DNA from: Patescibacteria group bacterium
GTDB taxonomy: Bacteria; Patescibacteriota; Microgenomatia; UBA1400; PJMF01
Assembly (NCBI GenBank): GCA_039934415.1
Contig: JBDTME010000003.1
Span: 11,821 to 75,820 of the forward strand
Direction: 5' to 3'
DNA length: 64,000 nucleotides
Part shown: positions 13,401 to 30,597 of the stretch, one piece after another
Layout: the number at the start of each line of letters is the position of its first letter
Numbering within the stretch: position 1 is the first letter of the stretch
Program-made: the position numbers and the translations under genes
Notes under the pieces: model-generated
The model's input: the letters and a program-made list of their open reading frames with translations, nothing else
The model's database searches: none
What the model was told of the DNA's origin: nothing

Positions 13401-16400
13401 AAAGTTAAACGCCGCGGCTGCCGCGCCACCCACATTCAAGGTATTACCATCGGCAAAGATGACATTGTTTCCTGCCGCATTGATCGTGAGGTCGCCAGTT
13501 GTCGTGATATCTCCACCATTGACTGCCAAATCGCCAGCCGTTGTGATATTGCCCGAGGCTTGGGCAACGGAGAAGTTAGCACCGCCTACTGTCAGATTCG
13601 CACCCGTTACATCGAGCCCATTGGTTGCATCGACATTACCGTCAAACTGAGCTTGGCCATCAACCTCAAAGGTTCCTTCAATGTAAGCATCTTCACCATC
13701 TTGAGTTAAGTTTGGTGTGCCATTTCCAACTTTGAGATTTCCGTCAAGGATTGTGAATAGACTGGTTGTGCCTAAGTCAGCTGTAATGTTGCCAGCGCCG
13801 TTCAAAGGCAAGAAGGAAATATCACCTGTCGTTGTTCCACCTAGAGTCAGGGTTTGATCTGCGGTGGTTTGTAAAACACCGGTGGCGGTTAAATATGCAC
13901 CACCAGCGGCTCCGGCAGAGAGGGAAGCTGTGGGTGTGCCAGAGTCTACATTTATAATAGCGAATTTGGCTGAAGCAGTAGAAGTACCACCGATGAGGAG
14001 ATCAAGTGTTTCATTGACAGGGTAGTGAGCACCATTCGCAATGGTCCATGTGCCTGCATTGCCACCTGAGCCACATGTTCCCCAGGTCGGAGCGCCAGTG
14101 CCGCCAGATTTTAGACAATCACCACCTGAGCCTGCAGTCGAAGTAAGTAGTTGTCCAGAACCGTTGGTGTAAACGATGCCACCGGCAGTATTGAGCGTTG
14201 AAAAAGTGACCGTGCCATCAAAACGAGCCGCACCGTCAACTTCCAAAACATCTTGAATATAGAGATCGTTGTCAGTGGCAGCGGTAGAATTACCGGCCGT
14301 AGAATCCGCAAAAAAGTTGAAAGTAGTACCAGCCGCGCCACCTACTCCCAACGTATTTCCGTCAGCCAGTAAGACGTTATTACCTGAAGCATTAATTGTG
14401 AGATCACCAGCTGTTGTGATGTCTCCACCATTCACTGCCAGGTCGCCAGCCGTTGTGATGTTGCCAGAAGCAGGAGCAACGGAGAAGTTACCACCGCCCA
14501 CTGTCAGATTGGAGCCGGTGACATCAAGGCCGTTGGTGGCATCAACATTGCCATCAAATTGAGCTTGGCCATCAACCTCAAAGGTGCCTTCAATGTATGC
14601 GTCTTCACCATCCAAGGTTAATCCGGGAGTGCCGTTTCCGATTTTTAAATTACCATCTAAAACATTAAACAAACTGGTTGTGCCTAAGTCAGCTGTAATG
14701 TTGCCCGCGCCGTTCAAAGGCAAGAAAGAAATGTCTCCCGTTGTCGTTCCGCCTAATGTTAGAGTTTGGTCGGCGGTGGTTTGTAAAATACCGGTAGCGG
14801 TTAAATACGCACCACCAGCGGCTCCAGCAGAGAGAGAAGCGGTGGGTGTGCCAGAGTCGACATTAATGATGGCAAACTTTGCCGAAGCCGTAGAAGTGCC
14901 ACCGATCAGAAGATCGAGCGTTTCATTGATTGGGTAGTGTGCGCCATTGGCAATAGTCCACGTGCCAGCACTTCCACCACCTCCTGCACACGCACCCCAG
15001 GTCGGAGCACCGGTGCCACCCGATTTGAGACAGTCGCCACCAGAGCCAGAAGCTGAGGTCAAAAGTTGTCCAGAACCATTGGTGTAGACAATGCCACCGG
15101 CTGTATTGAGTGCAGAAACCGTGACGGTGCCATCAAAGCGAGCCGCGCCATCTACTTCTAAAACATCTTGAATATAGAGATCATTGTCAGTGGCAGCAGT
15201 TGAATTACCGGCTGTGGAATCCGCAAAGAAGTTATATGCCTGAGCGCCAGCCCCTCCAATATTGAGCACGGTATTATTGGAAAAGATGACGTTACCACCA
15301 GCAGGGTTAATCGTAAGATCACCTGTGGAAGTGATATCTCCGCCATTGACTGCCAAATCGCCGGCAGTGGTAATGTCACCAGCATTGTTGACAGTTAATA
15401 CTTGTCCGCCAGTTCCATTGATGACGAGTGGGGTACTACCAGCATAGGTTGCACTGATCGTTGCTCCGTGAGTGAAGATGTATCCATCGTTAATCACATT
15501 CCCATTGAGATTTATTGTGCCAGTCCCATCAGGGTCTATGATAATGTTTCCATTGCTGCCAGAGTTGGTGACTAAGTTCAAAGTAGCCCCAGAAATAGTG
15601 AAAGTGCCACCGACCGATCGTAGTTGTGGTGATTGCTCACCGAGTAACACTTCACCCCATTGATTCATTACCACCACAGTACTCTTCGATGCTCCAGCTG
15701 TTGCGTTGACAGGGAACCCTTGTAGGGTTTCCGCATTTAAGGCATATGGAACGGTTGCGATGCGCTGGCGAGGAGTCAGTACGTCTGAGACGACCGTAAT
15801 TTCTAGCCAGACTTGGCTATTCTCAGTAAACACCGTGGCATCAATCGCACTGCCACAAGTACTGCCCAAGATCGTCGAGAAGATCCCATCTTGATCTGGG
15901 TCAATACTACAAGTTCCCGAATTCCAGAGCAGGTTTCCTGCCGAAGAAGCATCCCAGAGTTTAAACGTGGTGTTCGTCGCTGTCGTAATAGGTGTCCCTG
16001 CAACATCGGTCAACCTCGCTTGAAAAGATAGGATTCTGTCGGCGGTGACTGGTGCTGCTGGAAAGGCAAATTTCTCTGGAACATTCACGAAGAATTGCCG
16101 ATACCACAAGATTGAAATGAATATAAAGAAAATGACGAGCGTCGCCAAATGAAAATATGGGCCGAGAATCCAGTCTTGGTACTTTTTGCGGTCAGCAGTT
16201 TTTTCGTCTGTGGTCTCTTTTGCACTCAGCTCATCTTGATTTTGAGATGGGGGGCGTTGAGTAAAAAATGCAGGCAGCTCTTGAATTGAGGTGGTTGATG
16301 CAGAAGGAGTAGGTGTCAGAGTAGGTGTGGGTGGGGTGACCACCTGAGGAGTCTCCGTGTGTTGTGACTCCGTGCTTAAGTAGTTTTTTTCAACCCAATT

Positions 16401-16754
16401 TGAAAATAATTTCAGACTCACAATTTTTCGTTGAATACTCGAACTTTTTAATCCTTTTTCTTGCTGATCAGCAAAGAAGCCTTTGAAGTTCTGTTCGCTC
16501 AAGACCGTCTGAATATTGTCGTCATTTGAAAAATCGAGGAATTGGAGAATGTCGCTGGAGTAGTTTCTCAGTGTTGATTTACTAACCGAAAGGGAACTCA
16601 GTTCTTTCAAAAACAGCTCCACGCAATGTTTGGCGGAAAGTGGTTGAGGTGAAGGCGCGTATTCTTGGTTTTCCACAACACCAGAAACACCCTCATCTTT
16701 TCGCTTGAATAGGCCTATGAAATTGCTGGAAAACTGTTTAATTTGGGCGAACAT
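7500..16754 (-). CDS. Giant (3084 aa) type-II-anchored surface protein with an N-terminal cytoplasmic XerD-N/SAM-like domain, a PT linker, one TM helix and a large Gly/Thr/Asn-rich beta-solenoid-like ectodomain containing four ~303-aa tandem repeats
   Basis: A single uninterrupted 9255-nt ORF. TM helix at aa 199-218 (YFHLATLVIFFIFISILWY) with positive residues before it. Repeat units share NITTAGDLAVNGGDIT...FNFFADSTAGNSTAATDNDLYIQDVLEVDGAARFDG...GGDCLKSGGTGAPTWG.C. The C-terminal region has coiled-coil / tail-fibre-like low-complexity segments. Confidence 0.85.
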   Translation of the reverse strand: MFAQIKQFSSNFIGLFKRKDEGVSGVVENQEYAPSPQPLSAKHCVELFLKELSSLSVSKSTLRNYSSDILQFLDFSNDDNIQTVLSEQNFKGFFADQQEKGLKSSSIQRKIVSLKLFSNWVEKNYLSTESQHTETPQVVTPPTPTLTPTPSASTTSIQELPAFFTQRPPSQNQDELSAKETTDEKTADRKKYQDWILGPYFHLATLVIFFIFISILWYRQFFVNVPEKFAFPAAPVTADRILSFQARLTDVAGTPITTATNTTFKLWDASSAGNLLWNSGTCSIDPDQDGIFSTILGSTCGSAIDATVFTENSQVWLEITVVSDVLTPRQRIATVPYALNAETLQGFPVNATAGASKSTVVVMNQWGEVLLGEQSPQLRSVGGTFTISGATLNLVTNSGSNGNIIIDPDGTGTINLNGNVINDGYIFTHGATISATYAGSTPLVINGTGGQVLTVNNAGDITTAGDLAVNGGDITSTGDLTINPAGGNVIFSNNTVLNIGGAGAQAYNFFADSTAGNSTAATDNDLYIQDVLEVDGAARFDGTVTVSALNTAGGIVYTNGSGQLLTSASGSGGDCLKSGGTGAPTWGACAGGGGSAGTWTIANGAHYPINETLDLLIGGTSTASAKFAIINVDSGTPTASLSAGAAGGAYLTATGILQTTADQTLTLGGTTTGDISFLPLNGAGNITADLGTTSLFNVLDGNLKIGNGTPGLTLDGEDAYIEGTFEVDGQAQFDGNVDATNGLDVTGSNLTVGGGNFSVAPASGNITTAGDLAVNGGDITTAGDLTINASGNNVLLADGNTLGVGGAAGTTFNFFADSTAGNSTAATDNDLYIQDVLEVDGAARFDGTVTFSTLNTAGGIVYTNGSGQLLTSTAGSGGDCLKSGGTGAPTWGTCGSGGNAGTWTIANGAHYPVNETLDLLIGGTSTASAKFAIINVDSGTPTASLSAGAAGGAYLTATGVLQTTADQTLTLGGTTTGDISFLPLNGAGNITADLGTTSLFTILDGNLKVGNGTPNLTQDGEDAYIEGTFEVDGQAQFDGNVDATNGLDVTGANLTVGGANFSVAQASGNITTAGDLAVNGGDITTTGDLTINAAGNNVIFADGNTLNVGGAAAAAFNFFADSTAGNSTAASDNDLYIQDVLEVDGAVRFDSSLTLSTFTTNGGLLYTNGSGVVAQTTAGSSGECLVSNAGGAPTWTSCSAAGSNFWRIANGAISPVNDTLDLLIGNTATTSAKFAIINVNSGNPTASLSAGTAGGAYLNATGTLQTTDNQALTIGGATTGDITLLPLNGAGAITADLGAATLFNILDGNLKVGNGTPGLTQNGEDGYIEGTFEVDGQAQFDGNVDATNGLDVTGANLTVGGANFSVAQASGNITTAGDLAVNGGDITTTGDLTISAAGNNVIFADGNTLNVGGAAAAAFNFFASSTATNNTADGDNDLYVQDEFEVDGAVRFDSSLTLSTFTTDGGLLYTNGSGVVAQTGQGSAGECLKSNAGGAPTFSACASANYWRIANGAISPVNDTLDLLIGNTATTSAKFAVLNVNSGTPTASLSAGDAGGAYLTAAGSLQTTANQKLTVGGATTGDINFLPLNGLGTVSVTSDLAQGARTTSALSVTQASNGSNNSASSLVSFSNSDTGSTSSVLDLSQTAANTWLGFSSISSATSGIGISMTGNTSGAISAFTGDYIKVNPGRTLTSGSIDDTGNYLDLNRSNTVNGGTTYTISGDLASFTSTCTQTSGTCTDTSNIISAAQNYANASGSVIDITNAGTGQGILLTSSSTGVLAQLDSTGAVTTADGLLIRAVNASGVITDALDVSDAEIVNAINVGDNFILGNGIRQFSSSSSVWTIEDTSGNDIATFTDGGTTGDLVLTNTISAYGNSIGLNNDASANNTLSFGAGAGQPTGDLYWGSRLLCTAASVNCGWIGSTTTTLQNAYDNDADGSNALITLNATDGSLVIRPIAGTNFQVSQVTSAPTGDMVAISNAGLGTTTANASGIGLTFVTGDGASITNNGLNIALTSGGTSAGDILNGINLTLTGTGGTETGINIGSGFDTGIAIVSAVGNEAIDLSPTAGIRTTALIDINENNTSGSAPTIQWDSAETRGGFLDANITGALSTENFIDLTTSGAFTSNLIDVNIGAQAATGDVINIDLGATAVNAQALVVGNSASVRTASMFEVNDNNSTGAVATFDLNGAGTRGGLFDIDWSGALATENLIDITANSIATANALNITENGLTTGRAINVSSTSTVLTTSDFANFDWSPSGSTEIFASAGSSLLTLNVGTYGNISKIFSVQDDSSEVFGVSQSLISNALPAEFTAAGDVAIAYDIQFTNQTASFIKSNGPLTIASGETFENNNLTLRTYGTGLLNVDAPGGSLFTVSGTTVASFNRNTSDGTIISLQQDGTQEGSISVSGTTVSYNAFTGSHYAWTDQSINKGEIVTLTDDNRRLGDRVESEILYGVVKSTVANDPKILGSYLALQESSQPASNKNPQLIMAAGNGEVWVVDQGENLQAGDYLISSNVEGHAMKEAGQFDKSYIFARVAEPVDWSTVTTTTAGGKKHKLISVLYESFVKDNAMGLTLSTDGSLSSNYTIQTPSQSANGRFSVIADATSQVVSRVGVFARLIVGEIQAGLITTKELIADRITIKDKLITPKVQTSLISPISGQQLSFNLGDADQNKLHITNKNNQDILTIDQQGNTDIVGTISAQQDLIASGSVQASTGRFEQLKAQQAQLASLEVGSATISGELFLSDGRSIQNIITDNDSYLASLSAQTEQITQAIQQAPQTVKSSAFDQFMSQLTGSSDASVSAAIQSIAQQQNIQLTSEDLVLAPSALFVKEYLSVAGYTQLNSASVSSNLTIGNNLLFTGDTIAVAGQTLFIQPTNTATVNILAGLLVLNPDGNVEINGDLVVNGNLAVKQQLNTNAMQLNDYSSDFTLKLATESAVLGESTQSKFSILDASNSAVASIDASGSARFKDLATQGIVIKQPVSQATDSASISQAAKNKTAGSMILPALATELTIENNNVSENGLIYLTPTSDTANQVLYLKSKETCNGPLALASCQKSFTVGIKNAVTQDINFNFWIVKVE
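11800..15450 (-). repeat. Four tandem in-frame repeats of about 910 nt (about 303 aa) inside the giant gene; copies 1-2 and copies 3-4 are nearly identical pairwise (A A' B B')
   Basis: Period measured from the recurring antisense-frame motif AKKLNAAAAAPPTFKVLPSAKMTL near 12.55, 13.46, 14.37 and 15.28 kb (spacings 909, 915, 912 nt). The nucleotide sequence at 12469 and at 13378 is about 90% identical. Confidence 0.8.
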
Positions 16755-18798: not shown

Positions 18799-20742
18799 TT
18801 AAGCGAAGAGATCTTTGTAGAGCTGTTGAGCGTCTTCCATGACAGCGAGTACGAGCACCTTTCCATTTCTGGCATCTGCGAGATAGAAGTTTTGTACTTT
18901 CCCATCTTCGACCCACACGTACTTTTGCTTACTCAGTGAAACTTGATACTCATTTGGAGGTAGGAATGCCTTAAACGAGCCTTTCTTATCAGTCACTAGC
19001 ACTGACATCAATTGATTAGATTCTTGTAGAAAAATACGCACAAAAACGTTCGCTAAAGGAGCTCCACTACTATCGACCACTTTACCGACGATGAGCGGTC
19101 TTTTTGTCCATCGGACGACCTTCAACACTAACATTGCGATGTAGATGACACAGACTCCCATGTTAATCATGGTAGGAGAGTAGAGAGTGATGAGTATCGA
19201 GATAAAGAACAACGGTAGAAATAAATACTGGGAAAGGCGCAGCAATCTTTCTTTTATCAAACTCCAGGAAATTTTTCGTTCACTCCCTTGCGCTTGGTTG
19301 ATGTGGTCGACAGGGATCAAGAACAGTTGTCTGGTTTTTTCATTTGAGACCTGGAACACTTCACCTTTATAGAACTCAAAGAGTGTTAAATATGTGGGGC
19401 GAGTTTTTACCGTAGGAAATACGAAATCTTGGTGCCGCACCTCGATTTGATACTTTCCCGGCGGTAGTTGAACACCTCCGTACACCCCCTCAGTATTCGT
19501 GACCACCGTTTCAGAGGTGCCTTGAGTATCCACTCTAGAAATATTGAGAATTGCGAAGGCAACTGGCTTTTCTGTCTCACTATCAAAAACCAAACCCTGA
19601 GGTGACGGTGGCGGAAGAATCCCAAGTGCCTGCAAAATTCTAAAGAAAATCTGAACAGACAAACTCCAGCCGAACTGTGTTGCCACCAGTGTAGTTGCAG
19701 CTATTGGAATAGCCACTGATAGCAACGCGGTGGCTATTGGAGCGGTTGCATTACTGAAATCTTTGACCACTTGTGGTATTTGACTGGGTACAAAATTACT
19801 GAGTATATTTTGTACTGTCTCAGTGATAGGTGTTGTAGGAATGCCAGGACCAGGGGTCGGGACGATTGCCGTCGCTCCGGGTTGAGGAGTAGGAACGGGT
19901 GTCGATAGCAAGAACGAGGTAGCAATCAAAAAGTAGACATTGTCTAATGTCGTGATGTGTCCCGCCAAGTCAGTTACGGTGAAGTTCATCGTAATTTTGA
20001 CGTCTCGAGTGAGCAACGGGAGAGTTTGAGACCAGTTGCCGCTGCTATCAACCGTGATGATATAAACCTGACTGGGTTCACTAGGGAGACTGACAGTCAA
20101 AACAATCGTTGCGCCAGCCTCGGAGTTGCCTTTGATGGTTGGTTGATTCGTATAAATGGTCAGGTAGGGGTCGGGACGTGTTGAGAGATCTTGAGATGAG
20201 ATTGAAGTTGTTGTCCCGTCAATCTGAGTGATGACTAGAGTTGGTGAGGTTGTGTCGATGGTGAAGGTCCAGGTGCTACTGTCAGCCGATTTACTATTGT
20301 TATCAACGGCAGTGATTTTCCAAGTGTGCAAGCCATCGGCAATGCTGGCAGAAGGCACCAAGGTATACTGCGTTCCCGACTTTGTGAGCGTGTAATCAAC
20401 ATTCGATGTGGCAGTTAATGGAATGTTGCTATAGAGCGTTGATCCGTCGAGGGTCAGCGTGTAATGATTCATTCCAGCAACAGCTGTGGATTCTTCCCAG
20501 ACAAAGGATGGGGTGTTGTCAGTCGTGATCGAACTATTACTGGGCGAGACCAGGGTTGGAGTCGTGGGTCCTGCGGTGTCTTCGACAGTCAAACTCATGT
20601 TAACTGGTCGATCTTTGGGATTGGTACTTCCAGTTTCACCGGTTAATAAACCACTCTCTTGGGCAAAAAGAGGACTGAATTGAACAGAGACGACGAAACA
20701 GAAAAACAGTATAAATAAAGCCCAGATTTTCTTGCTAAACAT
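18799..20742 (-). CDS. Signal-peptide protein with Big_6-like Ig domains, an internal multi-TM segment and two carboxypeptidase-regulatory-like (CarboxypepD_reg) beta-sandwich domains
   Basis: Signal peptide MFSKKIWALFILFFCFVVSVQFSPLFAQ. Ig-like repeats (PTLVSPSNSSITTDNTPSFVWEE..., TIYTNQPTIKGNSEAGATIVLTV...VDSSGNWSQT). CarboxypepD_reg-like segments GLVFDSETEKPVAFAILNI...GKYQIEV and IVGKVVDSSGAPLANVFVRIF...NEYQVSL. Confidence 0.7.
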   Translation of the reverse strand: MFSKKIWALFILFFCFVVSVQFSPLFAQESGLLTGETGSTNPKDRPVNMSLTVEDTAGPTTPTLVSPSNSSITTDNTPSFVWEESTAVAGMNHYTLTLDGSTLYSNIPLTATSNVDYTLTKSGTQYTLVPSASIADGLHTWKITAVDNNSKSADSSTWTFTIDTTSPTLVITQIDGTTTSISSQDLSTRPDPYLTIYTNQPTIKGNSEAGATIVLTVSLPSEPSQVYIITVDSSGNWSQTLPLLTRDVKITMNFTVTDLAGHITTLDNVYFLIATSFLLSTPVPTPQPGATAIVPTPGPGIPTTPITETVQNILSNFVPSQIPQVVKDFSNATAPIATALLSVAIPIAATTLVATQFGWSLSVQIFFRILQALGILPPPSPQGLVFDSETEKPVAFAILNISRVDTQGTSETVVTNTEGVYGGVQLPPGKYQIEVRHQDFVFPTVKTRPTYLTLFEFYKGEVFQVSNEKTRQLFLIPVDHINQAQGSERKISWSLIKERLLRLSQYLFLPLFFISILITLYSPTMINMGVCVIYIAMLVLKVVRWTKRPLIVGKVVDSSGAPLANVFVRIFLQESNQLMSVLVTDKKGSFKAFLPPNEYQVSLSKQKYVWVEDGKVQNFYLADARNGKVLVLAVMEDAQQLYKDLFA

Positions 20743-20761
20743 ATTTTCAGTCTACTACAAT

Positions 20762-21832
20762 TTAATTTTGTTCATCCTTGAACTGCTCCAACTTTGGTGA
20801 CCGGAGGTGTTTGATTTTTTCACTCAAAATTTCTTTTTCTTTTTTTCTCTCTTGAATAGTTGTGTCCACCTTCTTTTTGAAAAAACCTAGCGTGCTGAGG
20901 AACAAGACCAACACGAACAGCATCGCCAAGATTGCGCGAATGGGAACGAGCCAGAACGAGAAAGAAGCCAATGCGACTTTGCCAGCAGTTCCATAGTTGG
21001 CACTGATCGTGGCGGTATATTTCCCCAGGCCCCATCTTTTACTCCAGGTTTCAGTAAACAGACGTTGAGTAGTCGGGAACACATTCTGAGAAGAAACAGT
21101 GAGTACATCACTAGTGATGCCGAGCATGTTTTTAATCTCGACCTGAATATTAGGATGAATGTGAATATCGGACCGATTGTCGATCACAAATGAAAATGGA
21201 ACAGGTCCGTACTCAAAAAAATCTTTGACCTGGACATCTCTAATGTATGCTTCCTGATTGACCTCACCTTCGACCACGAAGTAGAGCAGTGTCCCGACTC
21301 GTTGAGAAATCCCAGTTCCAGACCCTGCCAAGGTTCCTTCTTCTGAAGGGCGGTGCATGATCATGGCATACCGTCCGCCTGGGAGTGCGTCATTCGGAAC
21401 TTGAATTAATAGATCTAGAGTAGCGAGCTCTCCTGGTTTGAGAGAGTGGGTGGAAGGAATGATGGTAATCCATTTTGCTAGACTCCACCGTGTGGATGTC
21501 GATTCACTCACTGGGATTGGTTGTTTGCCGTCTTCGCCGATTACAAAATCTTCAGCAACTGTGCTGATTTGTTGAGTCTTATTTGAACCATTTTTCACTT
21601 TGACGACAGCTTGAATAGTTTGACCTGGTTTGGCTTTGAGCGAGAAGTCCTCATCACCGAGTCGAGCTGGGATGGCAGTCAGTTGAGAGAGCGAGATGTC
21701 GTCACTAGTTTGAGCAAGTGCGGCAGAAGCAAATGTAAACAAAGTAAGAGGAAGTACTGCTGTTGCCAGAACCACAAAACAACTCAAGATCGTTGTTAGG
21801 CTTTGTTTCTGGTAAGTAAAAAAAACACTCAT
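20762..21832 (-). CDS. DUF916/DUF3324-like cell-surface protein with a C-terminal TM anchor and Lys-rich tail (CscA-like), paralog 1
   Basis: Signal peptide; WSLAKWITI...SLKPGELATLDLLIQVPNDALPGGRYAMIM matches my recollection of the DUF916 core; C-terminal TM helix (ILAMLFVLVLFLSTLGFF) followed by KKKVDTTIQERKKEKE. Confidence 0.65.
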   Translation of the reverse strand: MSVFFTYQKQSLTTILSCFVVLATAVLPLTLFTFASAALAQTSDDISLSQLTAIPARLGDEDFSLKAKPGQTIQAVVKVKNGSNKTQQISTVAEDFVIGEDGKQPIPVSESTSTRWSLAKWITIIPSTHSLKPGELATLDLLIQVPNDALPGGRYAMIMHRPSEEGTLAGSGTGISQRVGTLLYFVVEGEVNQEAYIRDVQVKDFFEYGPVPFSFVIDNRSDIHIHPNIQVEIKNMLGITSDVLTVSSQNVFPTTQRLFTETWSKRWGLGKYTATISANYGTAGKVALASFSFWLVPIRAILAMLFVLVLFLSTLGFFKKKVDTTIQERKKEKEILSEKIKHLRSPKLEQFKDEQN

Positions 21833-21979
21833 AGTTTTAGTTTGATTTTAAATATGCCCTTGGTCAGTCTTGTTGTTTGTTCGTTTCGGTCGAAGCATGC
21901 CCTTGTTCATTCTGGCTCATCAGATTCGCCAGAAATTCACGGGCAGACAAGACTGATTTAAAAACTGTATCAGTCTTGT

Positions 21980-23452
21980 CTAGAACGATGCCGTTGCTCG
22001 ATACGTCACCGTATTTTGATAACTTCCAGCCGTTGTACTACTCCCTACGATGACTTGATAGCAGACATACACGTTGTTATCTGTGGCAGGCGCGGTTGCC
22101 GAGAAAATGGTTTGGGCTGATTGTGAATTTTCACTGTCTGGTAATTGTTTAGCGGAAAATGTTCGCCCACTCTCGTTGTACGAAAACGCTTCAGTTGTCG
22201 TGCTACTAGGATCTTGGAGACTATAGCCAAGACCTTGATTACTTGTGCTCGTCCAATCTTGAGATGTTGTATGTGACATGCCACTGACGTTGGCGTCCGG
22301 CACGCAGCTATTTCCAGAAGGAGGATCACCAGCACAACTGCCACCATCTTTTCCCATCTGATCATTTGCTGAAATGGTGACAGTAAATCCGTTCGCTGCA
22401 TTTGTCGACACATTTAATTTTTGGGAGGCTCGCTTAAATGAAGAAGAGGAGACTGTTCCAAAAGGGACTGTTGTGGTGGTCGTAGTTGCGTCTGTGGTCT
22501 GTCCACACGTCGTTGTTCCTGAAGCTACAGCGAGTACACCAAAAGTAATTTGTGAAGGGACGCTTGCAGTGACTCTGACAGATTCAACATTCCCTACGGT
22601 GACGATGGTCGAATCAGTCGCCGTATCTGTGCTGTCCAAGTTTCTCACTAATATCTTGTATGGATCTGAGTACCCTTGAACGTGTCCGATCTTTGGGGAA
22701 GGGTTGATGACATTACTAATGACGATGGTGCCTTGTGTGGTGCCATCAAAAGCCGTGCTTGCCACACCACTCCCAGAGTACCGACATGAATACGCATGAT
22801 ATGTCACATTTGCCAAAGTTACCGCCGACGAACTTGCCGTTCCAGTGACGAAGTCATAGCTAGAGCCCACATCAGAAGGGCAAGTGACGGTGGGAGTCGA
22901 AGTTCCAAAATCAAAACCATCTTGATCAGGTATTCCATTGGCTCGACCAGCTGAGCCGGAAAGCGTTGTGGCTGGAACTAAAATTTGGAAAGCACCATTA
23001 CTGATCGCTGAGGCAGTCGTGAACCGTACTGTCATATTGCCTGATTGAGTTGCGATGACCGCATCACCACTGTCCGTATCATTCGTCTGGAGTGAAGCAA
23101 AACTCGGAGTTCGAATCAAGAAACTTCCAGGATTCGCACTCGCGCTTGCGACGGTATATGTATTTGCTGTGCTGGTATCACCGATCAAGACCGAGTCACC
23201 TTCCGCGAGTTCTGCCGAGGTAGTAGAGGAAGCACCACCGGCAGTAGTAACGATGTTGACTGTCGTGTCACCGACGCTATTACCAGTTGTTAACTTTCCA
23301 ACGAATGACAAACGAGGCGTTGCCAAGGTGACTGAGACACTACTCATGTTTGCAGATCGAGTTTTTTCGATCAAACCAAAACTAAAAAATACAGCCAAGC
23401 ACATTCCGGCGATACTCAATTTTTGTTTGGTTAAAAAACGTTGGTCTTTCAT
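21980..23452 (-). CDS. Secreted 490-aa Thr/Ser-rich beta protein with a conserved about 170-aa C-terminal domain (large paralog of the 24514-25254 gene; CscC/WxL-like position in the cluster)
   Basis: Signal peptide. The C-terminal domain aligns with the 246-aa paralog: GGSCAGDPPSGNSC...SQDWTSTSNQGLGYSLQ...AGSYQNTVTYRATASF versus TLCDSGSCDES..AGSWTNANNYGFGFNLS...AGNYETLVTYQLIATY. Confidence 0.75.
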   Translation of the reverse strand: MKDQRFLTKQKLSIAGMCLAVFFSFGLIEKTRSANMSSVSVTLATPRLSFVGKLTTGNSVGDTTVNIVTTAGGASSTTSAELAEGDSVLIGDTSTANTYTVASASANPGSFLIRTPSFASLQTNDTDSGDAVIATQSGNMTVRFTTASAISNGAFQILVPATTLSGSAGRANGIPDQDGFDFGTSTPTVTCPSDVGSSYDFVTGTASSSAVTLANVTYHAYSCRYSGSGVASTAFDGTTQGTIVISNVINPSPKIGHVQGYSDPYKILVRNLDSTDTATDSTIVTVGNVESVRVTASVPSQITFGVLAVASGTTTCGQTTDATTTTTTVPFGTVSSSSFKRASQKLNVSTNAANGFTVTISANDQMGKDGGSCAGDPPSGNSCVPDANVSGMSHTTSQDWTSTSNQGLGYSLQDPSSTTTEAFSYNESGRTFSAKQLPDSENSQSAQTIFSATAPATDNNVYVCYQVIVGSSTTAGSYQNTVTYRATASF

Positions 23453-23473
23453 CAGTTCTCAATTCAATGTCAT

Positions 23474-24496
23474 TTATGAGTCGAGCTTATGTTGTGTCCC
23501 ATTCTCTGGTTTGGCTTTACGACTACGACCTTGAAACAAGTTGCTCTTGGTGTAGAGCAAGTACACGATGTACACCAAGATGACGAAGATCAGCGCAGAG
23601 ATCGGTAATGCAAATACCGTGTGTTCAAATTTTTGTTCTTCTTGGCCTGGTGCATGATAGGTGAGGATCAACTTATACGGTCCAAGCAGAAATAAACCCT
23701 TGTATCGGATGGGTTGCTCGATTTTGTACTCTTCGCCATCTTTGTTGACGCTTTCTGAACCAAAGACCTGTCTTCCTGCTCCTGGTAAAATGTTCTCTGG
23801 CAAAAAATCATTTTCGTAAACGACATTTCCCAACACATTCACAATTCTCAAATTTCCCAAAGTGACCGTCGTGTTTTTGCCAGCATTATGCATAAAGACT
23901 TTGGCTGTAATAGCCGATAGACTGTCGAGAAAAAGAGGTGCCTCAAAAGATTGAAGTTCGATGATTCCTTGATCTTTGGCAGTTCGAGAAACGGTAATAA
24001 TGAAATTACTGACGATCTGACCACTCACCGCTGTTCCGCTTTGGTCGTGAAGACTGTTTTGAATTGGTTCGACATCCGTGACCAGTGAGAAGTGATACTC
24101 TTTCTCAACTGAATTTTCAGGGAGTGCCACTTCAAACACGAGTTGTTTAGTATTCCCAGTTTTCAGAAGGAAAGGAGTGTTGAGATGCACTTCAGCATCT
24201 TGCAATGACATGTAGGAAAAGGACATGTTGTCAGACAAAACGGGAATTCCAGTTTTATTATCACTCGTAAAGTCTACAAAGTTTGTTGTCAGGTTCACAT
24301 CAAAATTTCCTTGGTTTTCCAACGACACCGTGGTGAGTGCGCTTTTTCCTGGTTGGATAATGATGTGGGTCAATGGAGGACTGATGCCGATGTTGAGATC
24401 AGCTTTTTGTGCATGCACGGGTTGCATCCCAAACATCGTCAGGAAAACAAGTGTGAATGTGAGAGTAGCGGCTTTATTTTTTTGAACCATAGACAT
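23474..24496 (-). CDS. DUF916/DUF3324-like cell-surface protein with a C-terminal TM anchor and basic tail (CscA-like), paralog 2
   Basis: Signal peptide; LNIGISPPLTHIIIQPGKSALTTVSLENQGNFDV and QLVFEVALPENSVEKEYHFSLV resemble DUF916; C-terminal TM helix LPISALIFVILVYIVYLLY followed by TKSNLFQGRSRKAKPENG. Confidence 0.65.
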   Translation of the reverse strand: MSMVQKNKAATLTFTLVFLTMFGMQPVHAQKADLNIGISPPLTHIIIQPGKSALTTVSLENQGNFDVNLTTNFVDFTSDNKTGIPVLSDNMSFSYMSLQDAEVHLNTPFLLKTGNTKQLVFEVALPENSVEKEYHFSLVTDVEPIQNSLHDQSGTAVSGQIVSNFIITVSRTAKDQGIIELQSFEAPLFLDSLSAITAKVFMHNAGKNTTVTLGNLRIVNVLGNVVYENDFLPENILPGAGRQVFGSESVNKDGEEYKIEQPIRYKGLFLLGPYKLILTYHAPGQEEQKFEHTVFALPISALIFVILVYIVYLLYTKSNLFQGRSRKAKPENGTQHKLDS

Positions 24497-24513
24497 CCTG
24501 ATTTTTAAAAAAC

Positions 24514-25254
24514 TTAATACGTCGCAATTAGTTGATACGTGACCAGTGTTTCGTAATTCCCGGCAGCCTGAGTCGCTTGGGGAGAGGCTTTGTACGTTAC
24601 GGTCGCATTACGATTGACTGAAACTCCTGTACCTGACATGACCGTTTTCATAGTTTCCGCATTTGAAACATCGGCGAACTGTCGGAAGTAGTTAGTGCTG
24701 GCAAAATCAGTAGCCACATCGTTGCCCGAGAGGTTAAAGCCAAAACCGTAATTGTTGGCGTTCGTCCAGCTACCAGCAGTGCTTTCATCGCAGCTGCCGC
24801 TGTCGCAGAGCGTGTCTCGGATGTCAGTACTCGTATTTAGCAATCTCAACGGGTGATTTTCTGAGGCTTTAACGGCGTACCCGCCGGCTCCGTTAGTGTC
24901 GACGATGAGCGTATGGGTGTCGGTGTTAAATGAACCATAGGTGAGTTCACTCAAGTCGATCGTAATTTTTGAAATCTTGAGCGACAGCGTACGGAAAGGA
25001 TAGATGTACTGAAAGCCGGCTTTGACGACATAGCCACTTCCGTCGTACTCGCCAGGAGAGATTTGGCCAACGGTGTCAGTGACTTTATAGTTTGCACTGG
25101 TTTTCTCACCAGACGTAACGTTGAAGTTCCCGAACTCAATCACGTATTGTGACGACGTCATGCGCTCGGCGAGTGAGGTCGCATAATTTGAGAACAGACA
25201 GCCTACGCTCAAGGTGGCGATGACTAGTTTTTTGACTGTGGAGAATTTATTCAT
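24514..25254 (-). CDS. Secreted 246-aa beta protein, small paralog carrying the conserved C-terminal domain (CscB/WxL-like position)
   Basis: Signal peptide MNKFSTVKKLVIATLSVGCLFSNYATSLA. The C-terminal domain shares the Cys pair, the W-T-x3-N-x-G-x-G-[YF]-x-L motif and the terminal AG-x-Y-x-[TN]-[LT]-VTY motif with the 490-aa protein. Confidence 0.75.
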   Translation of the reverse strand: MNKFSTVKKLVIATLSVGCLFSNYATSLAERMTSSQYVIEFGNFNVTSGEKTSANYKVTDTVGQISPGEYDGSGYVVKAGFQYIYPFRTLSLKISKITIDLSELTYGSFNTDTHTLIVDTNGAGGYAVKASENHPLRLLNTSTDIRDTLCDSGSCDESTAGSWTNANNYGFGFNLSGNDVATDFASTNYFRQFADVSNAETMKTVMSGTGVSVNRNATVTYKASPQATQAAGNYETLVTYQLIATY

Positions 25255-25927
25255 TGGTGCCTTGTTTGTTGACCACTTCTAACAACTGCTCAACAGCGTC
25301 CTGCACGATCAAGATCTGACGAGCGATCACTTCTTTATTTTCTTCAGGATAATCAGACAAACGGAGCAGGTTTTCGAGTTTTGGTTTTAAAAATGTGGTG
25401 ACGAACAAGATAGCATTCGACTGTTGATCCGACAGCTCGACTTGCTGTTTTTCGACGATCAGTTCACCTTTGATGTGTGCTTCGTATTGCTTTTTAGTAA
25501 ACAGGAAGATGAACTGCATCAAAAACAGAGATAACAGTTGCGAGATATGTTGAGTACTTGATGTTGTGATCAAACTATAGTGAAAAAAGACGATCGCGAC
25601 GCTGACTACGATAGCTTGAAACGGTCGTAAACTCATCGTTAAAAAAAAGATATGCAGGTAGGCGAATGGGAAAAAGAAGGAGTCAATGTTTCCGGTATTG
25701 CCAATCAGGAGGACGATTGCAGCCGAGATCAAAGCGAACTCAGGATTCGATTGTTCGATGCTCAACGGTAAGTAATGTTTCCGCTTGGCGAACCGGATGC
25801 CAAAGTAGATCAATCCCAGCAGTCCAGCCAGCTGAGCAGAGTAGTAGCTCAAGCCCGGAATGTTCAACCACAAGTACGATCCGACCAAGACAAACAAGAT
25901 GGCCACCGTTTGGGCAGTTGAGTTCAT
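25247..25927 (-). CDS. Hypothetical integral membrane protein (4-5 TM helices plus a cytoplasmic C-terminal helical region)
   Basis: Hydrophobic helices (VAILFVLVGSYLWL, LAGLLGLIYFGI, ALISAAIVLLIG, FFFPFAYLHIFFLTM, IVVSVAIVFFHYSL). Its stop overlaps the start of the next gene by 8 nt, so it is the first gene of the minus-strand surface cluster. Confidence 0.55.
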   Translation of the reverse strand: MNSTAQTVAILFVLVGSYLWLNIPGLSYYSAQLAGLLGLIYFGIRFAKRKHYLPLSIEQSNPEFALISAAIVLLIGNTGNIDSFFFPFAYLHIFFLTMSLRPFQAIVVSVAIVFFHYSLITTSSTQHISQLLSLFLMQFIFLFTKKQYEAHIKGELIVEKQQVELSDQQSNAILFVTTFLKPKLENLLRLSDYPEENKEVIARQILIVQDAVEQLLEVVNKQGTNE

Positions 25928-27225: not shown

Positions 27226-29802
27226 ATGTCTACTCAAATCTACGATCACAAAACAATTGAAGAAAAATGGATGAAGTCTTGGGAGGAGCAGCAGTTGTTC
27301 CAGGATGAGGTTCATAAGAACCCGCAGCAGTCTGGCTCCTCAGGCTCCGCCAGAAGTGCGCGGGATGACTCAGCTGATTTGAAAACTGTATCAGCTGAGT
27401 CAAAGCCGACAAAAGAGAAGATGTATCTCTTGTTTGCGTTTGCTTATCCATCTGGAGCAGGCCTTCACGTTGGCCATGTCGAGTCGAAAACCGCCCTTGA
27501 TATTTTGGCTCGGTATCATCGCATGAATGGCAAACAAGTGTTCTTTCCAGTTGGTTGGGATGCATTTGGCTTGCCAGCCGAGAACTACGCTGTGAAGACT
27601 GGTGTCCATCCTGCTATCACGACCAAGAATGCCATTGATACGTTTCGCGGTCAGATAAAACGGATCGGTATTTCCTACGACTGGGCAAATGAGCTCGCCA
27701 CGAATCATCCTGAGTATTACAAATGGACGCAATGGATTTTCTTACAACTCCACAAAAAAGGTCTAGCTTACCGAGGAGATGGCATGGTCAACTGGTGTCC
27801 ATCGTGCCAAACCGTCCTGGCCAACGAGCAAGTCGTCAACGGTCACTGTGAACGTTGTGGGTCAGAAGTGATTCAGAAGCAGATGGAGCAGTGGTTCTTC
27901 AAGATTACTGAGTACAAAGATGAGTTGATTTCCGGACTCGATGAGGTTGACTGGCCGCATGCAACCAAGTTGCAACAACTCAACTGGATTGGCAAATCAA
28001 AAGGATTAGCCATCGATTTTATGATGCAAGGATCTGAGACCAAGTTAACAGTCTGGACGAAGTTTTGGGAAACAGTGTTTGGAACGACCTTTGTAGTAAT
28101 TGCTCCAGAGCAATTTCGCGACATGAATCTGATGGATCAAGTTGCAGAATCTCATAGACACACTGTCCAAACCTATATCGATCAGTCTTTCAAAAAAACA
28201 GAAGAAGAACGCAAGATAGGTGAAAAAGAAAAGACCGGTGTCGATACTGGTTTGAAAGTGATCAACCCCGTCAACGGTTCGGCTGTTCCGTTGTACATTG
28301 CTGACTATGTGCTGATGAACGTGGGAACCGGTGTGGTGATGGGGGTGCCAGCCCACGATGATCGAGACTTTGAGTTTGCCACAAAGTTTAAACTACCTAT
28401 TATCCAAGTCGTGAGTTATGAAGACAAAACAATTGACCGAAAAGTAGCCGAGGCAGAAATGTCTTTTGAAGGTCCTGGTAAATTAATGAATTCAGGAAAT
28501 TTTGATGGTTTGGATGCTTGGCACGATGGCAAACAGAAGATGGCTGAGTGGATGATCAAACAAGGATTTGCAAACTGGCAGACTACTTATAAACTCCGTG
28601 ACTGGTTGATTTCTCGCCAACGCTATTGGGGCGCACCGATTCCCATTGTCTACGATCCAAGTGGGGCGGCGCACCCAGTCAAAGAAGAACATCTTCCCTG
28701 GTTGTTGCCAACCGATGTTGAATTCAAACCAACAGGTGAATCACCACTAACATACTCCAAGGAATTTAAAGAACGAGTAGAGAAATTGTACGGCAAAGGC
28801 TGGCGTCCAGAGTATGACACGATGGATACCTTTGTTGACTCGAGTTGGTACTTTATGCGTTATCTAGATGCTCGAGATAAAAATGAGTTTGCGACACGAG
28901 AACAACTTGAGAAGTGGTTACCAACTGATCTGTACATGATTGGTCCTGAACACATCGTATTGCACTTGTTGTACGCCCGTTTCTTTACCAAGTTCTTGCG
29001 TGATGAAGGGTACTTGAGTATTAATGAACCGTTTAAGAAAATGCGTCATCAAGGAATGATCATGGGTCCAGATGGTAAAAAAATGAGTAAGAGCAAGGGC
29101 AACGTCATCAATCCAGATGAGGTAATCGAGAAGTACGGAGCCGATACTTTGCGCGTCTATGAGATGTTCATGGGTCCAATCGAAGCCGACAAACCGTGGA
29201 GCACGTCTTCAGTAGTAGGCATTTACCGATTCTTAATGAGAATTCATCAGCTCGTTACGACCAACATCGAGGCTTTGCAGAGTGGAGTGGCAACTTCACC
29301 AGCACCCGAGCTGATGAGGAAACTACATCTGACGATGAAGAAAATTAACGATGATATACCAGCTTTGAAATTTAACACCGCCATCGCAGCCATGATGGAG
29401 TTATTAAATGTGTGGGAACAAGCCGGGAAACACCAGAACACAGTTGCTCCGACACTAGATGTTGACTCATTGACGAGCTTCATCCAGGTATTGAGTCCAT
29501 TTGCACCTTTCCTGGCTGAAGAGCTGTATCAACAAGTCAAGAGTGGTCAACAATCGGTCCACTTATCCCAGTGGCCATCTTTTGACGAAAAAATGTTGGT
29601 AGCTGATCAGCTAGTAGTGGTCATTCAAGTCAATGGAAAACTCAGAGCAGAGGTGACCATCCCATTAAGTGATAAAGATGAGAAGCAAAAGGTCATCGAA
29701 CTCGCCAAATCTCAGGATAAAGTTAAACCTTGGCTTCAAGACAAAACAATCGTCAAAGAAATCTACATTCCAGGGAAGCTCGTGAATCTAGCAGTGAGTT
29801 GA
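27226..29802 (+). CDS. leuS: Leucyl-tRNA synthetase
   Basis: Class I HIGH motif (PSGAGLHVGHV), KMSKSKGN motif, LeuRS-specific editing/CP1 and C-terminal blocks, 858 aa. A low-complexity insertion of about 30 aa (NPQQSGSSGSARSARDDSADLKTVSAESKPT) precedes the HIGH region. Confidence 0.95.
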   Translation: MSTQIYDHKTIEEKWMKSWEEQQLFQDEVHKNPQQSGSSGSARSARDDSADLKTVSAESKPTKEKMYLLFAFAYPSGAGLHVGHVESKTALDILARYHRMNGKQVFFPVGWDAFGLPAENYAVKTGVHPAITTKNAIDTFRGQIKRIGISYDWANELATNHPEYYKWTQWIFLQLHKKGLAYRGDGMVNWCPSCQTVLANEQVVNGHCERCGSEVIQKQMEQWFFKITEYKDELISGLDEVDWPHATKLQQLNWIGKSKGLAIDFMMQGSETKLTVWTKFWETVFGTTFVVIAPEQFRDMNLMDQVAESHRHTVQTYIDQSFKKTEEERKIGEKEKTGVDTGLKVINPVNGSAVPLYIADYVLMNVGTGVVMGVPAHDDRDFEFATKFKLPIIQVVSYEDKTIDRKVAEAEMSFEGPGKLMNSGNFDGLDAWHDGKQKMAEWMIKQGFANWQTTYKLRDWLISRQRYWGAPIPIVYDPSGAAHPVKEEHLPWLLPTDVEFKPTGESPLTYSKEFKERVEKLYGKGWRPEYDTMDTFVDSSWYFMRYLDARDKNEFATREQLEKWLPTDLYMIGPEHIVLHLLYARFFTKFLRDEGYLSINEPFKKMRHQGMIMGPDGKKMSKSKGNVINPDEVIEKYGADTLRVYEMFMGPIEADKPWSTSSVVGIYRFLMRIHQLVTTNIEALQSGVATSPAPELMRKLHLTMKKINDDIPALKFNTAIAAMMELLNVWEQAGKHQNTVAPTLDVDSLTSFIQVLSPFAPFLAEELYQQVKSGQQSVHLSQWPSFDEKMLVADQLVVVIQVNGKLRAEVTIPLSDKDEKQKVIELAKSQDKVKPWLQDKTIVKEIYIPGKLVNLAVS

Positions 29803-29869
29803 GAAAAGAACACAAAATTGCAGACCCGCTTGTCATCTTCTTGTAAGAATCTCTCGTTACACTTCTGGC

Positions 29870-30529
29870 ATGTCACTACCAGAAGCCATTCAACCATATC
29901 TCGAGACGCTCTGCAAATACCAGAGTAAACTGTACCCCGTCGTAGCGGCAGCCCTGTTTTTGATGGGTACGGTTCTGATCTTGATGGGAATCTTCTTTTC
30001 CAGGCAAGCTCCAGTTCAAGCAAAAGTAGAACCGAGTGTTCATTCAAACTTTGAAAAAACAACCTCCCCTCAAGAACAACCAAGTGACAAAATCATGGTT
30101 GATATCTCTGGTGCAGTAGCCAAGCCAGGCCTGTACACGTTTAATAAAGGTGACCGACTATCTGCCGCACTCCAGGCAGCCGGTGGTTTTGATTCTAAAG
30201 TAAACAAAGAATTTGCTGCACACGCTTTCAACTTGTCGCAAAAACTGATCGATGAACAGAAGATTTATATTCCTTTCTTTAACGAAAAAGAGGATATCTC
30301 AATCATTGCTTCAAGAAATTCCACCAACACTACTACACATGCCGCTCAACCGCTAATTAATGTCAACACTGCTTCGCAGGCTGAACTTGAGACCTTGACC
30401 GGCATTGGCGCTGTTCGGGCTCAAAAAATAATTTCTGGTCGACAGTTCAAAACGCTCCAAGAACTCGTCAAAAAGGGGAGCATGACTCAGAAGATCTTTA
30501 ATGATAACAAAGATAAAATCACGCTTTAA
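29870..30529 (+). CDS. comEA: Competence protein ComEA (TM anchor, SLBB domain, tandem helix-hairpin-helix DNA-binding domain)
   Basis: N-terminal TM helix; SLBB-like KIMVDISGAVAKPGLYTFNKGDRLSAALQAAGG; C-terminal HhH INVNTASQAELETLTGIGAVRAQKIISGRQ. Confidence 0.85.
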   Translation: MSLPEAIQPYLETLCKYQSKLYPVVAAALFLMGTVLILMGIFFSRQAPVQAKVEPSVHSNFEKTTSPQEQPSDKIMVDISGAVAKPGLYTFNKGDRLSAALQAAGGFDSKVNKEFAAHAFNLSQKLIDEQKIYIPFFNEKEDISIIASRNSTNTTTHAAQPLINVNTASQAELETLTGIGAVRAQKIISGRQFKTLQELVKKGSMTQKIFNDNKDKITL

Positions 30530-30597
30530 ATTGAATCCTATATAAATAAACTATTAACAATGATGTTTCGCATCTAAAAACGAGTAAATATTTTTTC

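Follow-up and report, generated by a model that had tools for sequence, protein, structure and literature searches.

A conserved six-gene operon from Microgenomatia that probably encodes a Pam-type pilus, with anchored chaperones homologous to Firmicutes WxLIP proteins

We analyzed a surface-protein operon on contig JBDTME010000003.1 of a metagenome-assembled Patescibacteria group bacterium. The window is the whole 64-kb stretch of DNA under analysis, and the operon occupies its positions 18799-25927, on the minus strand. A first-pass annotation, made from the letters of this DNA, had described six co-directional minus-strand genes here, and all six open reading frames (ORFs) lie exactly where it had placed them. 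We propose that they are probably the Microgenomatia-type counterpart of the Pam pilus operon known from candidate phyla radiation (CPR) bacteria, that is, a Sec-dependent, usher-less system with membrane-anchored chaperones and donor-strand exchange. From the first gene to the last, the features of the operon are as follows.

25247..25927, minus strand: gene 1 (226 aa), a polytopic membrane protein with a helical cytoplasmic C-terminal tail, assigned from the ORF and its hydrophobic segments.
24514..25254, minus strand: gene 2 (246 aa), a secreted protein with a Pam-type C-terminal domain only, the PamT-like putative tip.
23474..24496, minus strand: gene 3 (340 aa), a membrane-anchored protein with two beta domains, WxLIP/PamC-D-like, here called chaperone A.
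21980..23452, minus strand: gene 4 (490 aa), a two-domain pilin with a beta-sandwich (residues ~38-289), a linker and a Pam-type C-domain (~325-490).
22556..22585, minus strand: pilin linker ESVRVTASVP (residues 290-299), a candidate donor strand by inferred function.
20762..21832, minus strand: gene 5 (356 aa), a membrane-anchored protein with two immunoglobulin (Ig) domains, a WxLIP/DUF916 homologue, here called chaperone B.
21293..21352, minus strand: chaperone B hairpin loop (residues 161-180), preceding the last domain-1 strand QRVGTLLYFVV, a candidate complementing strand.
18799..20742, minus strand: gene 6 (647 aa), with a signal peptide, two Big_13 domains, transmembrane (TM) segments and two CarboxypepD_reg domains, a putative anchor/terminator.
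20578..20604, minus strand: mature N-terminal strand of gene 6, VNMSLTVED (residues 47-55), a degenerate copy of the family motif VTAxVPD.

The gaps between genes 1 to 6 are, in order, -8, 17, 21, 147 and 19 nt. Database entries that match window proteins exactly carry the locus tags ABI425_03535 to _03545, and the named relatives of these proteins belong to Woesebacteria, Pacebacteria, Cerribacteria and Microgenomates, which places the window in the Microgenomatia part of the CPR. No second copy of the pilin domain or of the chaperone was found elsewhere in the 64 kb, and the scans for promoters and terminators gave no more than expected from shuffled sequence.

With the chaperone family as seed, a metagenome scan gave 80 loci, and gene order was judged in the 30 loci of at least 12 kb. 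All 30 carry the six genes on one strand in the order 226-, 246-, 340-, 490-, 356- and 647-type, the 226-aa type being always the first gene and the 647-aa type always the last. Three relatives found via the pilin show the identical order, beside leuS. The first-pass annotation had viewed the central four genes as a tandem duplication of a two-gene module. The module is really present twice, and the description is correct in this respect, as the paralogy of both the secreted and the anchored proteins was confirmed (see below). A recent duplication, in contrast, does not agree with the data: the two copies form separate orthologous groups in 30/30 related loci, and the duplication is ancient. 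The pairing of a subunit gene with a chaperone-like gene, whose co-occurrence in related genomes the annotation had proposed to look for, is kept in every one of these loci.

The two secreted proteins, of 246 and 490 aa, are paralogous through a C-terminal domain of ~150-170 residues, as had been claimed. BLASTP aligned the domains over 174 columns at 24% identity (E 2e-9), and the two family profiles aligned by hhalign at 99.7% (E 1.4e-26, 152 columns). The motifs reported for this domain exist, with two corrections. Each protein has a single Trp (W163 in the 246-aa and W400 in the 490-aa protein) within W-T-x3-N-x-G-x-G-[FY]-x-L, and each has a Cys pair, of unequal spacing in the two (C150/C155 in CDSGSC versus C373/C383 in CAGDPPSGNSC). 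The motif AG-x-Y-x-[TN]-[LT]-VTY lies 6 residues before the C-terminus in both proteins, not at their extreme end. A W-x-L motif is absent from both, as first noted.

The known system that these proteins resemble is that of the Pam filaments of Ca. Mycosynbacter amalyticus, solved by cryo-electron microscopy (cryo-EM) (preprint 10.64898/2026.03.03.709456). In these filaments the pilins PamA, PamB and PamE polymerise by giving a linker strand to the next subunit, and PamT is a tip subunit with a single domain. The chaperones PamC and PamD resemble PapD and FimC and carry a TM helix at the C-terminus, while PamR is a TM-anchored terminator with an N-terminal strand (10.64898/2026.03.03.709456). 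Homologues have been reported only from the CPR, chiefly from Saccharimonadia and Microgenomatia, and those of Microgenomatia were found only by a language-model search, at ~21% similarity (10.64898/2026.03.03.709456).

The NCBIfam model of the Pam pilin C-domain, NF058581, matched the 490-aa protein over residues 325-490 (25.6 bits, E 1e-5) and also the 246-aa protein (24.3 bits, E 2.7e-5). The latter was further matched over residues 9-178 by the PamT model NF058579 (32.3 bits, E 6.4e-8). The curated cutoffs are 55 bits for NF058581 and 240 bits for NF058579, an equivalog model. This likeness to the Pam models is family-wide: NF058581 matches 16/31 relatives of the 490-aa protein (best E 3.9e-9) and 45/62 of the 246-aa family (best E 7.8e-12), and 46/62 of the latter match NF058579 (best E 5.9e-16). 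No rival family competed with the Pam models for the subunits. Given its score, the 246-aa protein, which has 807 relatives among 50%-identity representatives, is a distant relative of PamT and not an equivalog.

The first-pass annotation had suggested that the shared domain may be a divergent or novel wall-binding family. The WxL family (PF13731) was matched by none of the window proteins and by none of 62 proteins related to the 246-aa protein. When the subunit C-domain was compared with 59 small and 10 large Firmicutes WxL domains, hhalign gave 0.2-2%, equal to the negative controls, while small against large WxL, the positive control, gave 98.7%. The shared domain instead appears to be of the Pam pilin type, and the suggestion of a novel wall-binding domain is not supported.

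The AlphaFold2 model of the 490-aa pilin (predicted local distance difference test score, pLDDT, 87.7) is all-beta, with an N-terminal domain, an unstructured linker at ~290-301 and a C-terminal beta domain. Foldseek matches to this model included a CfaE/CfaB pilin fusion, FimH, PapG and the FimA rod, and the matches were only generic or of low TM-score. Sequence searches of the PDB with both secreted proteins and the two family profiles returned nothing at E up to 10.

Some relatives of the subunits carry further domains. Larger relatives have the Pam-type C-terminal domain at their end (P0387, 933 aa; P0376, 474 aa; P0374, 425 aa), and among the scanned relatives of the 246-aa protein LamG domains occur in three members and DUF2341 in two. 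The LamG fusions suggest lectin-tipped subunits, comparable with large WxL proteins and FimH-type adhesins. The TafC family fimbrial protein model NF052521 matches one relative of the 246-aa protein (E 8e-6), a possible link to another fimbrial family.

We then considered the anchored proteins, which had been called DUF916/DUF3324-like and compared with those of the Csc clusters. Csc surface-protein clusters were reportedly described by Siezen in 2006. WxL/Csc clusters occur in Lactobacillales, Listeria and Bacillus and consist of a small WxL protein, a large WxL protein and WxLIP, a DUF916-DUF3324-TM protein (Hassan et al. 2023, PMC10599100). The cluster is defined by a small secreted protein, a large secreted protein and a TM-anchored WxLIP with two Ig domains, and AlphaFold2 predicts that a hairpin of WxLIP completes the beta-sandwich of the WxL domain (PMC10599100). 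The layout of the operon, which the first-pass annotation had likened to Csc clusters, agrees with this definition.

The 340-aa and 356-aa proteins were only marginally similar in pairwise comparison (E 0.029). Their families, in contrast, aligned by hhalign at 98% (E 3.1e-13), and the 255 aligned columns begin in the first beta domain and reach the TM helix. Each protein has one C-terminal hydrophobic helix (residues 289-321 in the 340-aa and 286-320 in the 356-aa protein) followed by a basic tail, and the proposed paralogy was therefore confirmed. The DUF916 model PF06030, now named WxLIP_PGBD, scored the 356-aa protein below threshold (20.7 bits against a gathering cutoff of 27.3) and matched 22/31 of its relatives (best E 4e-8). 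To obtain a Firmicutes WxLIP set, one genome per species was scanned for NQIDKxxxYFDLK, giving 68 loci with textbook WxL clusters, from which 57 WxLIPs were used. Aligned with these 57 by hhalign, the 356-aa family reached 97.6% (E 2.7e-12) and the 340-aa family 93.1% (E 3.2e-7, 283 columns). The latter was narrow in a word-index search (13 proteins), and an orthologue is nonetheless present in 30/30 loci.

The AlphaFold2 model of the 356-aa protein (pLDDT 86.5) shows two beta-sandwiches and a long C-terminal helix. The best solved structures in a Foldseek search were the Enterococcus faecium WxLIP 9i1y_A (E 4.4e-12) and 9i25_C, followed by the chaperones CfaA, CsuC, FimC and Caf1M (E 2e-10 to 2e-7, probability 1.0), and also RbmA. 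The second Ig-like domain is structurally present, within the 270-column alignment to 9i1y. Both anchored proteins are thus homologous to the Firmicutes WxLIP/CscA (DUF916) proteins. Of the earlier assignment, the DUF916 half is borne out by sequence and structure, while DUF3324 (PF11797) had no Pfam match in the window proteins or in 31 and 13 relatives of the two proteins. The first-pass annotation had also named two outcomes that would speak against its reading. One of them, a pilin assignment of the shared secreted domain, was observed (below threshold); the other, a lack of DUF916 similarity in the anchored proteins, was not.

The linker between the two pilin domains has the near-invariant family consensus EAV[KR]VTAxVxPQITF, with the alternating hydrophobic and polar residues expected of a donor strand. 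It occupies the position of the linker that PamA and PamB donate in the Pam pilus (preprint). In the monomer model of the 490-aa protein, it coincides with a local pLDDT minimum of 71, without secondary structure, at ~291-300. None of 41 members of the 246-aa family carries the linker motif, which fits a tip subunit that only accepts a strand. In chaperone B, residues 161-180 have a pLDDT of 68-69 and are flanked by values above 90. In the strand that follows this hairpin, Q177, G180, L182 and Y184 are invariant or nearly so among 31 relatives. The hairpin parallels that of WxLIP which is predicted by AlphaFold2 to fill the WxL sandwich (PMC10599100). We infer that the pilin linker serves as the donor strand, and that the hairpin strand of chaperone B would be the complementing strand.

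The 647-aa protein contains two Big_13 domains (E 1e-14) and two CarboxypepD_reg domains (E 1.6e-16) in Pfam, a Pro-rich linker, and internal TM segments near residues 332-357 and 500-546. It had been described as a Big_6/CarboxypepD_reg protein; CarboxypepD_reg was found as described, while the other domain is Big_13. In its family, the mature chain opens with an orphan strand, VTAxVPD, ahead of the first Ig domain, and this strand resembles the pilin linker. With a position-specific scoring matrix (PSSM) built from the linker core, 43/53 members of the 647-aa family scored highest within their first 110 residues, far above other ORFs. As the sequences are related, the Mann-Whitney p-values for this linker-like strand are inflated, and we take the strand as no more than suggestive of a PamR-like terminating or anchoring role. 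The 226-aa protein had no informative Pfam or PDB match, as queried with a 22-member family alignment.

Distant homology and anatomy together suggest the following model of filament formation. All subunits would be exported by Sec. Each exported subunit would present an incomplete C-terminal Ig-like domain and would be captured by the chaperone encoded next to its gene, the 246-aa subunit by the 340-aa chaperone and the 490-aa pilin by the 356-aa chaperone. The chaperone would be held in the membrane by its C-terminal helix, and the flexible hairpin in its first domain would supply the strand that completes the subunit fold. The 246-aa protein, which has an acceptor domain and no linker strand, would start the filament as its tip. 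The 490-aa pilins would then be added serially, each displacing the chaperone as its inter-domain linker EAV[KR]VTAxVP enters the groove of the subunit before it. Finally, the 647-aa membrane protein may stop growth and tether the fibre by donating a similar N-terminal strand.

Several features connect the operon with the Pam pilus. The window's relatives fall within the reported, CPR-restricted range of Pam homologues, which argues for the Pam reading. This reading is also favoured by the family-wide matches to the Pam models, the likeness of the 356-aa model to WxLIP and chaperone-usher chaperones, the conserved amphipathic pilin linker, the linker-like strand of the 647-aa family, the invariable six-gene order and the LamG fusions, which recall adhesin-bearing subunits of pili. 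As in the Pam system, there is a single-domain PamT-like subunit and a two-domain pilin with a conserved inter-domain linker, as seen in the AlphaFold2 model. Chaperone-like proteins occur as a pair in both systems, each built of two Ig domains and a C-terminal TM helix, of PapD/FimC-like fold as judged by Foldseek with the 356-aa model. Neither system has an usher or a sortase. The TM-anchored last component, with its linker-like N-terminal strand at family level, may be a further common feature. There are also differences: the operon has one gene for a two-domain pilin instead of three (PamA, PamB and PamE), it includes an extra conserved 226-aa membrane protein, and it comes from Microgenomatia, not Saccharimonadia.

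Other observations weigh against the Pam reading. Every match of the operon to the curated NCBIfam models is far under its cutoff (25.6 versus 55 and 32 versus 240 bits). The coordinates of PamA and PamB were not matched in the PDB sequence searches and are not among the fold-search matches listed. Of the ATP synthase genes that reportedly accompany pam operons, none was found among the large ORFs of the window, where the neighbours are leuS, comEA and comEC. The putative anchor is a 647-aa multi-TM protein with Big_13 and CarboxypepD_reg domains, a make-up unlike that of PamR, which is RbmA-like with two FnIII domains. The window's copy of its N-terminal strand, VNMSLTVED, is degenerate and obtains no score from the linker PSSM. 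In its family, the strand-plus-Pro motif is found at the ends of ordinary Ig-domain strands as well, such as the one near residue 220. Finally, WxLIP, the closest solved relative of the chaperone, is currently read as a static anchor and not as an assembly chaperone (PMC10599100).

This last point leads to a different explanation, in which each secreted protein would remain bound by strand complementation to its own anchored partner and display adhesive domains on the cell surface, and no filament would be made. Such a static complex is currently proposed for WxL and WxLIP in Enterococcus and Lactobacillus (PMC10599100). It would account for the homology of the anchored proteins to WxLIP in sequence and structure, for the anchored gene directly after each secreted gene and for the small-plus-large pattern that defines WxL clusters; moreover, the WxL-WxLIP complex is stable enough to crystallise (9i25). 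However, the secreted proteins lack a WxL domain and match the models of Pam pilins instead, which polymerise according to cryo-EM, and the near-invariant amphipathic linker of the pilin would have no role in a 1:1 complex. We therefore consider the static complex unlikely. It is decidedly improbable that the genes form a conserved envelope cluster unrelated to adhesion or filaments, for instance in envelope maintenance, and that their Ig-like folds are generic. The position of the operon beside the housekeeping gene leuS in the relatives checked, and the 226-aa and 647-aa proteins, which carry no assigned function, would suit such a cluster, but the specific profile matches to Pam pilin models and WxLIP and the subunit/chaperone-like pairing in 30/30 loci would not.

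We also compared the operon with classical pili, since chaperone-usher chaperones and pilins were among the fold-search matches. To our knowledge, CPR bacteria have no outer membrane. The six genes include no usher-family or sortase-family Pfam match, PapD_N was not matched in any of 31 chaperone B relatives, and the chaperones are membrane-anchored. No TM segment is predicted at the C-terminus of either secreted subunit, and their last residues, VTYQLIATY and VTYRATASF, do not form the hydrophobic-plus-basic tail of a sortase substrate. A Gram-negative chaperone-usher pilus or a Gram-positive sortase-linked pilus is accordingly scarcely credible here. The operon does share with the Pap, Fim, CFA/I, Csu and Caf1 systems the two-domain Ig-like chaperone fold (the Foldseek matches above) and incomplete Ig-like subunits, and donor-strand complementation and exchange are likely the common assembly principle. 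In contrast to these systems, the chaperones are tethered to the cytoplasmic membrane, and an internal linker is the candidate donor strand where those systems use an N-terminal extension.

Some features in and around the operon lie outside the proposed Pam system. The 147-nt gap between the pilin and chaperone B genes (21833-21979) holds a perfect 13-bp hairpin with an 11-nt loop (21945-21981, minus strand), which begins in the pilin stop codon and has no U-tract; the 161-nt hairpin region folds with a minimum free energy of -40.3 kcal/mol (z -3.2). We considered it as an element for differential expression and rejected it as part of the system because it is not conserved: it is missing from 35 related loci, where the median gap is 14 nt and folding is weaker than after other genes. 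In relatives, the chaperone B gene starts with ATG-(6-9 nt)-CTGCCC. In the window, CTGCCC (~21938-21946, minus strand) is intergenic, just past the hairpin and out of frame with the start at 21832; insertion of the hairpin may have displaced the ancestral 5' end of the gene.

Directly upstream of the operon and divergent from it (27226-32061, plus strand) are leuS, comEA (SLBB and HHH_3 domains) and comEC (Competence domain). Among the related loci checked, leuS flanks the operon in L001, L002 and L003, a comEA-like gene is present in L001 and L002, and comEC in L002. A 3084-aa protein encoded at 7500-16754 (minus strand) carries a Phage_int_SAM_1 domain at its N-terminus (E 1e-6) and also contains a TM segment and long, near-identical internal repeats of ~300 aa, and in L001 a 4918-aa counterpart with an N-terminal Phage_int_SAM_1 domain follows the operon. 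A 1358-aa protein at 3417-7493 (minus strand) carries five Laminin_G_3 (LamG) domains (E 2.7e-105) and a domain like the receptor-binding domain of clostridial neurotoxins. It probably serves as a lectin or adhesin at the surface, and the Pam C-terminal domain is absent from it. The window contains two ORFs of 1358 aa, which are unrelated. The 744-aa protein encoded at 38449-40683 (minus strand) combines domains of TrwB/VirD4-type coupling proteins and of HerA-like ATPases, and is likely a component of type IV secretion or conjugation.

Since WxLIP and the Pam-type chaperones are homologous, WxL clusters and Pam pili might have a common origin. The two kinds of cluster have in common a homologous anchored protein of 340-370 aa with two Ig-like domains and a C-terminal TM helix, small and large secreted proteins with a common C-terminal domain and, as proposed here for the operon and predicted by AlphaFold2 for WxLIP and WxL, a partner strand that would complete an incomplete beta-sandwich. 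They differ in that the secreted proteins of the operon have no WxL domain, motif or detectable profile similarity to WxL, and its anchored proteins no DUF3324 Pfam match. Furthermore, the operon has two anchored genes where WxL clusters usually have a single WxLIP, its host is a CPR bacterium and not a member of the Firmicutes, and association with peptidoglycan, not a role as filament subunits, has been described for WxL proteins. We tentatively hypothesize, while regarding this as rather doubtful, that Pam pili and WxL/Csc clusters are two branches of one ancient monoderm system of anchored chaperones and incomplete Ig-like subunits. The chaperone half of this hypothesis is supported by sequence and structure; for the subunit half, homology between the Pam C-domain and WxL is undetectable by sequence (hhalign <=2%).

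Attachment to host cells is the presumed way of life of CPR bacteria, and little is known about how they establish contact. The operon most likely builds a thin adhesive surface filament of the Pam type, and its fixed gene content and order across Microgenomatia-type genomes suggest that it probably encodes a core surface organelle of the lineage. The Pam pilus itself is a known kind of structure, of which the operon would be a compact six-gene version with a simpler subunit set, another putative anchor and one additional membrane protein. The new finding is the homology of Pam-type anchored chaperones to the Firmicutes WxLIP/DUF916 proteins, a link made neither in the Pam preprint, which does not mention WxL or DUF916 (10.64898/2026.03.03.709456), nor in the WxL study (PMC10599100). 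This homology joins two literatures that do not cite each other, and offers a lead both on the origin of Pam pili, which the preprint left open, and on the role of WxLIP in enterococci, listeriae and lactobacilli. If the two systems do share an origin, WxLIP would by descent be a pilus-type chaperone, and WxL proteins might assemble or oligomerise by strand complementation and exchange, rather than merely stick to peptidoglycan.

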